Shown: positions 13,945-56,322 of the stretch, piece by piece
How positions within the stretch are numbered: position 1 is the stretch's first letter
How the letters are laid out: each line of letters opens with the position of its first letter
Assembly (NCBI GenBank): GCA_964291285.2
Contig: OZ219787.1
Coordinates: forward strand, 1,952,001-2,016,000
Length of the DNA stretch: 64,000 nt
Source of the DNA: Alphaproteobacteria bacterium
GTDB taxonomy: Bacteria; Pseudomonadota; Alphaproteobacteria; Bin95
Direction of reading: 5' to 3'
The notes under the pieces: model-generated
Databases searched by the model: none
What the model was told of the DNA's origin: nothing
What the model saw: the letters and a program-made list of their open reading frames with translations, nothing else
Position numbers and translations under genes: made by a program

Positions 13945-14349
13945 TCAGCGGAAAGTGTCCGAAGAGGTTGAGTCGGTCCGGCGCGAATTCGCCGGCGGCC
14001 GGCCGATTCGCCGCTCGACGCCGTGGCGTTTGAGGAAGCGGTTCATCGCGCTGCGGCTGAAGACGAGGCCCTGCTCGCGAAGAGCCGCGCACAACGCATT
14101 TGCGGGCAGGTCCGGGTCCGCCTCCAGCAGGGCGAATATCCGGTCCCGCTCCGCCTCGATTCTCCAGGCGCGGGTCCTGCCGGTCCGCCCCTTCGGCCGC
14201 AGATGGCCGCGCGCGCGTTCCAGCCGCCGCCAGCCGGCGATGGTGCCCACGCCGACGCGGAACAGCCGGGCCGCCTCCGCCCGGGTCATCCCCTCCGCCA
14301 GCGCCGCCATCACCCGCTCCCTGAGTTCCACGGGAAGCGCCTTGCCCAT
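13945..14349 (-). CDS. IS630-transposase-derived DNA-binding protein (HTH + winged HTH only, no DDE domain)
   Basis: MGKALPVELRERVMAALAEGMTRAEAARLFRVGVGTIAGW resembles IS630 OrfA; GAGGAGG RBS; no A-rich frameshift run and no downstream OrfB. Confidence 0.75.
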   Translation of the reverse strand: MGKALPVELRERVMAALAEGMTRAEAARLFRVGVGTIAGWRRLERARGHLRPKGRTGRTRAWRIEAERDRIFALLEADPDLPANALCAALREQGLVFSRSAMNRFLKRHGVERRIGRPPANSRRTDSTSSDTFR

Positions 14350-54069: not shown

Positions 54070-54433
54070 AAGCTCCGTCCTTGCGCCACCAGGGCGTGCC
54101 CCGCGCCTCCGGAAGGCCGGTCGTTTCCGCGTGGGTGAAGCGGCGCTTCCCCAGGCGCGTGATGCGGAAGCGCCCGCCGCAATGCGGGTCGGGGCAGGCG
54201 ACCTCGGTATCCGTCGTCATCCAGTCGTTTTCGTCCGTGACCCGCTGCTTTGCGGGCAGCAGGGGCAGAATCGCGGCGAGCGGGAACATCGGGAAACGGT
54301 CGGTGCCGGAAAAGACGAGGGTCTCGCCCTCCACCGTGAAATAGGCGCCCTCGGGGTGGTTGCAGACCATCGGCCCGTCGCCGGCGACCACCTCCACCTT
54401 CAGGTCGTAAAGCTCGAACGGTCTTTCCGCCAA
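54062..54433 (-). CDS. TIGR04076-family protein
   Basis: FELYDLKVEV...C.H..G...LPLLPAKQR...NDWM..D..VACPDP.CG; TTG start after AAGGAAGG. Confidence 0.8.
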   Translation of the reverse strand: MAERPFELYDLKVEVVAGDGPMVCNHPEGAYFTVEGETLVFSGTDRFPMFPLAAILPLLPAKQRVTDENDWMTTDTEVACPDPHCGGRFRITRLGKRRFTHAETTGLPEARGTPWWRKDGACG

Positions 54434-54543
54434 TGTCCGCCCCCTTCCTTCGACGCCCGCCGCCGTTCCCGGCTCCCGGTCCAGCCTAACACATGCCGCC
54501 GCCAGCGCCGGAGGGTTGCAACGATCCCGGATGGATTTATTTT

Positions 54544-54558
54544 GTTCTTTATTTGTGC
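54544..54558 (+). promoter_or_regulatory. Putative LexA (alpha-type SOS) box
   Basis: GTTC-TTTATTT-GTGC, one mismatch to GTTC-N7-GTTC, in an AT-rich island about 35 bp upstream of ATG 54593. Confidence 0.6.
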
Positions 54559-54592
54559 TTTTATGTGTGAAATCGCAGCGGGAGGCGCCGGC

Positions 54593-55291
54593 ATGGCGAA
54601 GGCCTATTCCCCCGACCTGCGCAAGCGGGTCCTTGCAGCCGTGGCGGAAGGGATGCCGCTTGCGGAGGCGGCGGAGCGGTTCCGGGTCAGCGTGCCGAGC
54701 ATCGTGCGCTGGCGCGCGCTCGAACGCGGGGGGCGGGGCGTCGGGCCGAAACCGTTCGCCGGGGGCCGGCGGCCGGTGCGGGTCGAGGCGGCGCGGGATA
54801 CCATCCTCGCCCTCCTGCGCGAAAATCCGGGCCTCTCTACCGAAGCCCTGCGCGCGGCGCTGGCGAAGCGCGGCCTCGTCTTCAGCTACGGCTCGCTCTA
54901 CCGTTTCCGCCAACGCCACGGCGTCCGGCGCCGCGAAGACCGCTGCGAGGCGCGGGTGGGAGCGGCGCGGGAGGCGATCTTCGCCCTTATGAGAGGAAAT
55001 CCGGGCCTCCCGACCCGCGCGCTCCGCGCAGCCCTGGCGGAGCGCGGCTTCGTCCTGGACTACGGCACCCTCCACCGGTTTCTCGCGCGCCACGGTTTGA
55101 AGGGCAAGAAGGCGGGCCGGCAGGACGGTCCGGCTGCCGGAAACGGCCGTACCGGCCCCCGGGCTCTTGCCGACGACCTGCGGCAGCGGATCGTTGCAGC
55201 CGTGGCGGCGGGGATGTCCTATGCGGAGGCGGGCCGGTTGTTCCGCGTCAACCCGGTCACCATCGCCCGCTGGCACGGGCGCCGGCGGTAA
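54593..55291 (+). CDS. IS630-transposase-derived multi-HTH protein (HTH-wHTH-wHTH-HTH, no DDE domain)
   Basis: MAKAYSPDLRKRVLAAVAEGM... IS630 OrfA-like start; internal duplication (ILALLRENPGLST / IFALMRGNPGLPT); C-terminal second HTH (DDLRQRIVAAVAAGMSYAEAGRLFRV); GGAGG RBS; 232 aa. Confidence 0.78.
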   Translation: MAKAYSPDLRKRVLAAVAEGMPLAEAAERFRVSVPSIVRWRALERGGRGVGPKPFAGGRRPVRVEAARDTILALLRENPGLSTEALRAALAKRGLVFSYGSLYRFRQRHGVRRREDRCEARVGAAREAIFALMRGNPGLPTRALRAALAERGFVLDYGTLHRFLARHGLKGKKAGRQDGPAAGNGRTGPRALADDLRQRIVAAVAAGMSYAEAGRLFRVNPVTIARWHGRRR

Positions 55292-55330
55292 AGCGGGGCA
55301 GCGGGCGGCCTGCCTGCCGCCCGCGATCGG

Positions 55331-55613
55331 CCGAAACGGATTTTCGAGGCCCGCCCCGAGGGCGCCTGCGCTCGACCGAAACGGACTGTTCGCACCGGCC
55401 TCCGAGGCAACCCATGCCGGGGCGGAGACGCCGAATCCGGCCGTCCGGAAACAGGGCGATGCTCAACCGAAACGGATTTTCGAGGCCTGCCCCGAGGGCC
55501 CTGCGCTCGACCGAAGCCGGCTGTTCGCACCGGCCTCCGAGGCAACCCATGCCGGGGCGGAGACGCCGAATCCGGCCGTCCGGAAACAGGGCGATGCTCA
55601 ACCGAAACGGATT
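55331..55613 (+). repeat. Tandem direct repeat: two 135-136-bp units plus a 12-bp third start
   Basis: Units begin CCGAAACGGATT at 55331, 55467 and 55602 and are nearly identical. Confidence 0.92.
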
Positions 55614-55761
55614 GCCGCCGGCGGCGGGCGCACGTCGCCGGTTGCTCTGCGGGAGCCCCTTTCGCCCAGGCTTTCCTGCCGCAGCGATCCGCCGCGACCG
55701 TTCGTCAGGGTGGCAAGTCCTTCATCCGCTTCGTCCCCGCCCGTTCCTCCGGTCCGCCCCT

Positions 55762-55805
55762 ATATGGGGGCGTTGTTCCTGCATGGCAAGGTTTCAGGGA
55801 AAAAA
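55762..55805 (-). promoter_or_regulatory. Promoter-like element (CTTGCC-N16-CCCATAT), divergent from sdhC, facing the repeat tract
   Basis: Minus strand reads TTTTTTCCCTGAAAC-CTTGCC-N16-CCCATAT; overlaps the palindrome TCAGGG-N8-CCCTGA (55794-55813). Confidence 0.5.
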
Positions 55806-55869
55806 TACCCTGATATTCCGGCAGGCGGTCCGGGACGGGCGCGGCGGCCGCCGGCCGGCGGCGCTCCGA

Positions 55870-55938: not shown

Positions 55939-56322
55939 ATGGCATCCGACAACCGGCCGCTGTCGCCGCATCTCCAGATTTACCGCCCGCAACTCACCTC
56001 CATGCTCTCCATCGCCCATCGCGGCGCCGGGATTGCGCTGGGCGCGGGCGCGGCGTTCTTCGCCTGGTGGCTGCTGGCCGCCGCCTCGGGGCCGGAGGCC
56101 TACGGAGCCGCGCAATCCTTCTTCGGTTCGGTCCCGGGCATCATCGTCCTGGCGGGCTTCTCCTTTGCGCTCTTCTATCATCTCTGCAACGGCATCAGGC
56201 ACCTGTTCTGGGATGCGGGCATGGGGCTGGAACTCGACCAGGCCTACCGGTCCGGCTGGGCGGTCGTCGCGGCGGCGGCCGTGCTGACCGCGGGCGCCTG
56301 GCTCTGGGCCTGCGCGGGCTGA
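55939..56322 (+). CDS. sdhC: Succinate dehydrogenase cytochrome b556 subunit
   Basis: RPLSPHLQIY, SIAHR, HLCNGIRHLFWD. Confidence 0.97.
   Translation: MASDNRPLSPHLQIYRPQLTSMLSIAHRGAGIALGAGAAFFAWWLLAAASGPEAYGAAQSFFGSVPGIIVLAGFSFALFYHLCNGIRHLFWDAGMGLELDQAYRSGWAVVAAAAVLTAGAWLWACAG

Follow-up and report, generated by a model that had tools for sequence, protein, structure and literature searches.

In a window of 64,000 nucleotides (nt) from an alphaproteobacterial genome (GenBank assembly GCA_964291285.2, contig OZ219787.1, positions 1,952,001 to 2,016,000; coordinates given below without a contig name count from the first letter of this window), we characterized a gene whose 232-residue product, P0001, consists of four helix-turn-helix (HTH) units in the order A-B-B'-A'. 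We propose, with a probability of roughly 0.6, that this is a functional, vertically inherited host gene encoding a domesticated site-specific DNA binder that probably acts at its own locus. Its status as a real DNA-binding host gene is very probable, while the suggestion that P0001 acts on the sequence motifs linked to its gene is a tentative one, to which we give somewhat less than even odds. The gene is real and selected, being neither a misassembly nor a decaying fragment, and among the genomes searched it is restricted to one genus.

The internal repetition is visible in the DNA as well as in the protein. A 107-nt direct repeat (A/A', 54613-54719 versus 55174-55280, 74% identity) encloses a second one of 147 nt (B/B', 54775-54921 versus 54949-55095, 75% identity), the copies of which start 174 nt, or 58 codons, apart. 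When the protein units were compared and each comparison was scored against 2000 residue shuffles, A (residues 1-50) was identical to A' (183-232) at 21 of 43 positions (z 17.3) and B (58-116) to B' (116-174) at 33 of 57 (z 30.3), with 0 of 2000 shuffles as good in both cases, whereas the control pairs A versus B (z 0.3) and A' versus B' (z -0.2) remained at the shuffle level. The first-pass annotation of this DNA, made from its letters alone, had spoken of a mirror architecture; the unit order that it gave is right, but the arrangement is not palindromic, since the four repeats are direct and lie on one strand. It had also recognized IS630 N-terminal HTH-like sequence in residues ~1-45 and ~190-232, and this is borne out by the A/A' score together with the Pfam and NCBIfam matches. 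In the Pfam scan of P0001, HTH_23, HTH_28, HTH_32 and HTH_Tnp_IS630 each match two stretches of the protein. The NCBIfam IS630 model NF033545 aligns residues 10-118 with profile positions 2-117 of 299 at 70.5 bits (cut-off 100); the matched part is the DNA-binding region, and nothing matches beyond profile position 117. Matches to P0001 in the ESM Atlas are IS630 OrfA-like clusters only, and scans with PADLOC and PHROGs gave nothing informative. By sequence homology, the four units of P0001 thus derive from the two-part HTH region at the N-terminus of IS630 transposases.

An AlphaFold2 model built from a 15-sequence alignment (mean predicted local distance difference test score, pLDDT, 73.9; predicted template modeling score, pTM, 0.28) contains four three-helix bundles with a pLDDT of ~80-92, connected by linkers (residues 47-62, 112-118 and 172-191) with values below 50, and it predicts neither packing between the units nor a wing. 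The fixed pseudo-dimeric structure suggested earlier finds no support in this model, which resembles four beads on disordered linkers. Likewise, of the view that B and B' are duplicated winged-HTH-like units, the duplication stands and the wing does not, the predicted bundles being plain and without a beta wing. A Foldseek search returned no match at an expectation value (E) ≤0.001; its weak matches were led by the paired domains of Pax5 (E 5.4e-3) and Pax6 (8.2e-3), followed by the DNA-binding domains of SETMAR, Mos1 and Tc3, and Sleeping Beauty shows weak sequence matches to P0001. As modeled, P0001 would be a chain of four HTH modules (A, B, B' and A'), each a three-helix bundle independent of the others, on flexible linkers. 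By analogy with its IS630/Tc1 domain homologs, it would bind DNA sequence-specifically, in a regulatory or an architectural role.

A misassembly, which had been named among the ways in which this reading could fail, can be set aside: Logan contigs of three short-read runs (X1, X2 and X3, from one study with the same organism label and possibly from the source strain) each span 54300-55415 in one piece with 0 differences, their only breaks falling within the 135-nt tandem repeat downstream of the gene. Homologs with the identical unit order, which had been called for as well, exist both in other species of the genus and in protein collections. Among 41 related genomes sampled first (designated by G numbers and including G000, which holds the window; L numbers denote loci and P numbers proteins), full-length A-B-B'-A' matches occur in four other species of the genus, at 77% (G014), 74% (G012), 72% (G010) and 69% (G005) amino acid identity. 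In the same sample, G006 has a three-unit form, G016 an A-B-B' form and G012, in addition, a frameshifted copy. Among 37 genomes of the order, matches with E ≤1e-32 were obtained in 7 of the 16 other genomes of the genus and in 0 of 10 genomes of each of two sister genera. Large protein collections added six full-length clusters (P0002 to P0005, P0010 and P0011), four three-unit clusters (P0006 to P0009) and two with A-B-B' (P0012 and P0013); in a search of 1.84 billion representatives, the P0010 cluster is alone among the best 150 listed in covering residues 1-232. A contig search for related loci returned only the two G012 loci.

The earlier proposal that the frame has been kept open also holds, and the results point to selection and not to chance. 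When the five intact genes with four units were aligned by codon, Nei-Gojobori pairwise counting gave ratios of nonsynonymous to synonymous change (dN/dS) of 0.32-0.51. Resolved by segment, the ratio is 0.19 in A, 0.33 in B, 0.42 in B' and 0.25 in A', compared with 0.48, 1.05 and 0.66 in the linkers and with 1.24 and 1.46 when the same DNA is read in the two shifted frames; these are simple counts in a genome with a strong bias in G+C content at third codon positions (GC3), with the shifted frames alone as control. The difference between the units on the one hand and the linkers and shifted frames on the other argues that selection acts on every HTH unit but spares the linkers. All insertions and deletions among the five genes are in frame and located in linkers or the tail. 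The GC3 of the open reading frame (ORF) is 0.858, and GC3 exceeds GC1, which exceeds GC2, in every segment. The Shine-Dalgarno sequence GGGAGG precedes the ATG in five of six aligned upstream regions (L019 has GGAAGG), and the longer string CGGGAGGCGCCGGCATG is found in three of them (G000, L016 and L021).

Natural variants shed light on the history of the units. Proteins of 174-179 residues lack exactly one 58-codon B unit, and all of them keep A'; because the deletion registers differ between P0006/P0007 and P0008/P0009, these variants go back to two independent unequal-recombination events. That both of these one-unit deletions retained A' suggests that this unit matters. B and B' each cluster with their own kind across species, A-B-B' forms included, and the duplication of B is therefore old. 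As for A', it is only 50% identical to A of the same protein, A being 63-67% identical to ordinary IS630 OrfA domains. In a domain tree of 43 columns, the branch leading to A' is long (1.3) and has a support of 100/100; the A' of P0010 and P0011 falls within the family's own A clade. A' could have arisen either by internal duplication followed by fast change or by arrival from another element. Two unrelated proteins, P0107 (367 residues) and P0189 (505 residues), carry 6 and ~10 tandem A-type transposase HTH units, respectively, which indicates that arrays of A-type units arise repeatedly, in a simple tandem order.

For all its sequence relationship to IS630, the locus does not behave as an insertion sequence (IS) of this family: a DDE_3 domain, terminal repeats and multiple copies were each searched for, and none was found. 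The full-length match to P0001 is single in G000, the next best being 64% identical over residues 1-117, and the nearest of the 32 DDE_3 matches in this genome lies 130 kb from the ORF. Of the 44 genomic matches to P0001 (E ≤0.001), none is inside a DDE_3-containing ORF, one is within 2.5 kb of DDE_3 (at 872 nt, judged too far upstream to belong to it), and two are within 3 kb of rve. When 5' flanks were compared with the reverse complement of 3' flanks, the search for terminal inverted repeats stayed at the shuffle level in three of four loci (66/300, 112/300 and 23/300); the fourth, L019, outscores the majority of them (9/300), but what aligns there is a short GC-rich stretch. A repeat search detected no such pair of ends either, and no terminal inverted repeats were found for two paralog elements. 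Instead, the gene is syntenic. It lies directly upstream of sdhC, the first gene of sdhCDAB, in G000, G014, G005, G006 (three-unit form), G010 and on contig C3 of G012 (frameshifted), and nucleotide identity is similar in the gene (76-89%) and in the sdhC flank (74-87%). In G012, the sdhC-linked copy (L043:1350-2090) is frameshifted within B, with a short duplication around ...KLSTEAL..., and an intact second copy of the whole unit is present on another contig (C5; L017:1501-2196). There the unit, from 5' box to leader, is non-syntenic, being placed between panE-like and major facilitator superfamily (MFS) genes and flanked by 33-nt direct repeats. We considered these repeats as a unit-specific att site and rejected the idea, as they belong to a dispersed repeat, of which they form the ends and which G012 carries in 74 copies.

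Other mobile DNA was recorded alongside. G000 holds ~28 near-identical copies of a 134-nt miniature inverted-repeat transposable element (MITE; e.g., C1:195686-195819) with imperfect terminal inverted repeats (ATACCACCGG... / ...CCGTTGGTAT); they lie outside the window, and the nearest relative is found at C3:2019048, 3 kb past the window end. Matches to a related end number 74 in G012, 20 in G010 and 13 in G014, and one copy is inserted directly after the stop codon of the gene copy on C3 of G012. An element of ~2.02 kb, of which G000 has dozens of copies at 99.8-99.95% identity (e.g., C1:117534-119554), is apparently a currently active IS.

The gene is accompanied by three non-coding features, the first of which is an AT-rich box on its 5' side. 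This box is conserved in all six aligned orthologous and paralogous upstream regions; within G000 it is common to the six closest of 42 paralogs, and only to those six. Judged from its sequence and position, it is probably a promoter or operator. Its half-sites, GTTC-N7-GTGC, vary to GTTC-N7-ATTC in G014, one paralog has an N6 spacing, and one half-site is imperfect. The operator consensus of alphaproteobacterial LexA, the SOS repressor, is GTTC-N7-GTTC. In the same genome, GAACCAATATAGAAC precedes lexA (C3, upstream of 1242759) and GTTCCTGAAATATTC precedes recA (C2, upstream of 932541), both of which resemble alphaproteobacterial SOS boxes. From the by-eye match of the 5' box to this consensus, the four-HTH gene may be damage-inducible.

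The second feature, 3' of the stop codon, is an array of direct motifs. The core CCGAA(A/G)CGGA has four exact copies in the window, all on the plus strand and all in this position. Five loci, with 2950 nt in all, contain 14 copies in forward orientation and none in reverse, versus a genome-wide density of 0.0096 per kb per strand (~500-fold). Four of the seven motif matches in G000 with at most one mismatch lie at the four-HTH locus, and the array, including its 135-nt tandem repeat, is unique in this genome. The first copy is found 39-41 nt past the stop codon in three loci, and a 45-nt spacing recurs in G000, L017 and L019, as well as, by way of a variant copy noticed by eye, in L016. Being direct and not inverted, the linked motifs give no hint of a two-fold symmetric site. 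The motif was not found at IS or MITE ends; by eye, a MITE end and the motif share a short CGACCG core only. We also considered that the array might be debris of the coding segment for linker 1 and rejected this, because the best alignment falls there in two of five loci but at the level of dinucleotide shuffles (86/200 and 35/200).

The third feature is a conserved region homologous to the promoter and leader of the two-HTH paralogs, present here in inverted orientation; nhmmer gives E 2.5e-61 for the four-HTH copy and 1.4e-42 for a paralog leader. A model of this ~240-nt region, R1, has matches in 12 of 17 genomes of the genus. All 11 strong matches (E ≤1e-30, in 9 genomes) lie 3' of a gene of the clade and share its strand, nine of them within ~600 nt of it and two separated by insertions of 2.1 and 3.7 kb. 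Among 13 weaker, near-full-length matches classified by eye, 11 directly precede another two-HTH paralog, with an orientation opposite to it, and two follow a paralog and have its orientation. In alignments, the four-HTH and the paralog leaders have their conserved blocks in common. One such block, GCAAACCGGCGAnnTGCGC (allowing up to three changes), has 130 matches genome-wide versus 36 for a backward-read control; it is upstream and facing the gene in 12 of 42 paralogs, and downstream and facing back only at the four-HTH gene and its closest paralog. Together, the orientations of R1 and of the leader block indicate that the region 3' of the four-HTH gene is an inverted family promoter/leader aimed at the gene's 3' end.

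Within this region we noted, by eye, a putative sigma-70-like promoter. In the promoter alignment, a TTG-hexamer is present in nine of ten rows, five of which read TTGACA. Read towards the paralog genes, the region opens with a TTGACA-type hexamer, a 17-nt spacer and a (C/T)ATATA-type hexamer, after which come a ~130-nt leader and the start codon of the paralog; in one paralog the element that precedes the gene is TTGACT ... TATATA. A consensus sigma-70 scanner called no promoter between 54300 and 56100, and Rfam gave no family at E ≤1 for the same interval, in which the scanner marked a single terminator-like hairpin (55755-55772), coincident with the palindromic -10 region. As a candidate structured RNA, the leader folds better on the minus strand (-29.5 kcal/mol) than on the plus strand (-17.6). 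The motif nearest the leader is similar, by eye, to sequence located behind the leader of a paralog. A six-codon mini-ORF, MKDLPP-stop (55704-55740, minus strand), was considered and rejected as non-coding: distant paralog leaders have M-T-stop. This peptide, or MKDVPP-stop or MKDMPP-stop, occurs in six of eight close leaders, with synonymous changes in Asp and Pro codons, and the invariant element is CCCTGAC.

In total, G000 contains about 44-50 mutually divergent IS630-OrfA-like two-HTH loci, which look like an expanded stand-alone gene family rather than IS copies. The closest paralog (141 residues, A-B) has the same layout as the four-HTH locus, consisting of a box, the gene, three related direct motifs and an inverted leader. 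Its unit fronts a cupin-like gene, and the copy on C5 of G012 fronts the MFS gene. A further A-B paralog lies in the window itself at 13990-14349 on the minus strand (C3:1965990-1966349); it is DDE-less, 52% identical to residues 1-120 of P0001 and preceded by an AT-rich 5' box of the same type, with GTGC-N7-GTTC. The coordinates of the features at the four-HTH locus are collected in Table 1.

Table 1. Features of the four-HTH locus, in window coordinates
Feature	Position	Strand	Details
AT-rich 5' box TTTTGTTCTTTATTTGTGCTTTTATGTGTG	54540-54569	+	GTTC-N7-GTGC at 54544-54558; ~25-55 nt upstream of start; probable promoter/operator
Shine-Dalgarno sequence GGGAGG	54580-54585	+	7 nt 5' of ATG
Four-HTH protein gene, P0001 (232 residues)	54593-55291 (stop included)	+	ORF from ATG to TAA; Pfam, NCBIfam, GC3, dN/dS
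Unit A, first HTH, PAI-like, residues 4-46	54602-54730	+	HTH_23 at 8-46; helices 7-18, 23-29, 34-45
Unit B, second HTH, RED-like, residues 63-111	54779-54925	+	HTH_32 at 39-104; helices 60-77, 83-92, 99-109
Unit B', tandem duplicate of B, residues 121-169	54953-55099	+	75% DNA repeat; HTH_Tnp_Tc3_2 at 127-176
Unit A', diverged extra A-type HTH, C-terminal, residues 191-230	55163-55282	+	HTH_28 at 197-227; HTH_Tnp_IS630 at 193-231
Direct motif array, core CCGAAACGGA	55327-55613	+	Core at 55331, 55376, 55467, 55602; includes 135-nt tandem repeat
Conserved region homologous to promoter/leader of two-HTH paralogs, inverted	55611-55849	-	Invariant GTCAGGG at 55704-55710
Putative sigma-70-like promoter	55761-55789	-	TTGCCA (55789-55784), 17-nt spacer, CATATA (55766-55761); by eye
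sdhC, first gene of sdhCDAB	55939-56322	+	Conserved downstream neighbor, outside the unit

Taken together, we favor a scenario in which the DNA-binding front end of an IS630-type transposase would have become a host gene without a catalytic domain. Since the 5' box, the motif array and the inverted leader are inherited with the gene, the targets of P0001 most probably lie at its own locus, where the protein may control its own promoter, the antisense promoter or sdhCDAB, and where the inverted family-type promoter/leader would fire back towards the gene. Several observations weigh against this interpretation. The motifs are direct, number from 1 to at least 5 and vary in spacing between species, and local duplication could have produced them without their being sites. 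In the leader, the covariation term of RNAalifold is close to zero, with few compensated pairs. The frameshift in the sdhC-linked copy of G012 shows that the ancestral site can do without the gene; no match at E ≤1e-32 was obtained in 9 of the 16 other genomes of the genus, and a full-length or near-full-length open copy is found in 5 of the 16 only (G005, G006, G010, G012 and G014). Finally, the conservation is moderate, with an overall dN/dS of ~0.37, and the GC3 of the gene is below that of neighboring housekeeping genes (0.90-0.94).

Beyond domestication at a single locus, one may imagine, as a doubtful but more far-reaching scenario, that the genus has recruited the IS630 module as a set of ~50 DDE-less two-HTH regulators, at least 12 of which share the promoter/leader, and that the four-HTH cassette tunes host operons. 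The gene, the inverted leader and the array would then form a DNA-binding and antisense control cassette, placed before host operons three independent times (sdhCDAB, the cupin-like gene and the MFS transporter). If so, the A-B-B'-A' order would let one chain read two sites without dimerizing.

Alternatively, the HTH gene, motif array and leader may make up a cassette that is non-autonomous and moves only rarely, either through recombination between dispersed repeats or with the help of a transposase acting in trans, so that the protein would be cargo that serves the cassette and not the host. This fits the second copy in G012 with the dispersed-repeat ends on both its sides, the unit of the same layout before the cupin-like gene in G000 and the ~50 DDE-less A-B loci of that genome. 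However, the unit has no terminal inverted repeats, G000 has it only once, five other species have it in synteny at a nucleotide identity like that of its flank, and the repeats around the G012 copy are not specific to it, all of which makes this alternative unlikely.

A trans-acting inhibitor of IS630-family or MITE transposition, occupying or bridging transposon ends, is a distinctly unlikely reading. DNA-binding-only derivatives of transposases, such as InsA of IS1, OrfA of IS911 and the inhibitor (Inh) of Tn5, regulate transposition, and P0001 shares this classic make-up; four HTH units could hold two ends, and with its 32 DDE_3 matches and ~28 MITE copies the genome is rich in mobile DNA. 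Yet the N-termini of active IS630 transposases do not match P0001 at E ≤0.001, and a shared DNA specificity is improbable because 0 of the 44 genomic matches lie inside DDE_3 ORFs. As the gene-linked motif is also missing from IS and MITE ends, the competition with IS630 transposases that the first-pass annotation envisaged is not supported.

Lastly, the ORF can hardly be a non-functional relic, in which IS630 fragments fused by chance and stayed open because stop codons are rare at 73% G+C: long spurious ORFs do overlap the 54593-55291 region on both strands, and frameshifts are seen in one ortholog and in the database forms P0015, P0023 and P0059, but dN/dS is well below 1 in all four units and near or above 1 in linkers and shifted frames, indels are in frame, the architecture is kept at 69-77% identity in four species, and the start codon and Shine-Dalgarno sequence are conserved.

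The preferred reading, that of a domesticated DNA binder, would extend to bacteria a process that is well established for eukaryotes, where transposase DNA-binding domains have been domesticated in Pax, CENP-B and SETMAR; in the literature searched, titles and abstracts describe no bacterial protein with the A-B-B'-A' order and no DDE-less IS630-OrfA gene family. The locus represents a clean bacterial case, with a clear domain origin, no catalytic remnant and purifying selection that is measurable in every module, and it comes with natural variants that are one module apart and with adjacent candidate cis sites. For these reasons, it should be an easy system in which to study how DNA-binding proteins are assembled from parts of mobile elements. 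It also illustrates that an annotation as "transposase" or "IS630 fragment" can conceal a host gene, given that 43 of the 44 matches in G000 have no DDE_3 within 2.5 kb.

Among known systems, P0001 is closest to the IS630 transposases and to the OrfA proteins of split-ORF elements, whose model its A-B part matches at positions 2-117; its closest database relatives are 128-residue proteins that their sources call "transposase". In the IS630-family element ISY100, the transposase is described as binding the terminal repeats via an N-terminal two-HTH domain (PMC2170065). Unlike IS630 elements, the P0001 locus has no DDE_3, no terminal inverted repeats and no TA-flanked element, and it is single-copy and syntenic; unlike IS630 transposases, the protein has an additional B' and A', in an order that no transposase is known to have. 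With the paired-type (PAI-RED) domains of Pax, Tc3, Mos1, Sleeping Beauty and SETMAR, it shares three-helix HTH subdomains joined by a linker, but P0001 would carry four of them in one chain, as PAI-RED-RED-PAI, and all of its fold matches are above E 0.001. InsA, OrfA and Inh are likewise the DNA-binding part of a transposase without catalytic activity. Each of them, however, is encoded by the element to which it belongs and has the same DNA specificity as that element, whereas the P0001 gene lies outside any element and its product stands far from the DNA-binding domains of those IS630 copies that are active in the genome. The CENP-B box, a short sequence repeated in arrays, is bound by CENP-B; at the four-HTH locus, array binding is a candidate only. 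P0001 further differs from CENP-B and SETMAR, both domesticated DNA-binding domains of the Tc1/mariner/pogo type, in being bacterial, in having no remnant of a catalytic domain and in the duplication of its subdomains. Nevertheless, the parallel is instructive, CENP-B being described as a host protein that originated from a transposase DNA-binding domain (PMC4231638, PMC13548663): as in CENP-B and SETMAR, a selected transposase DNA-binding module appears to have been kept as a host protein.

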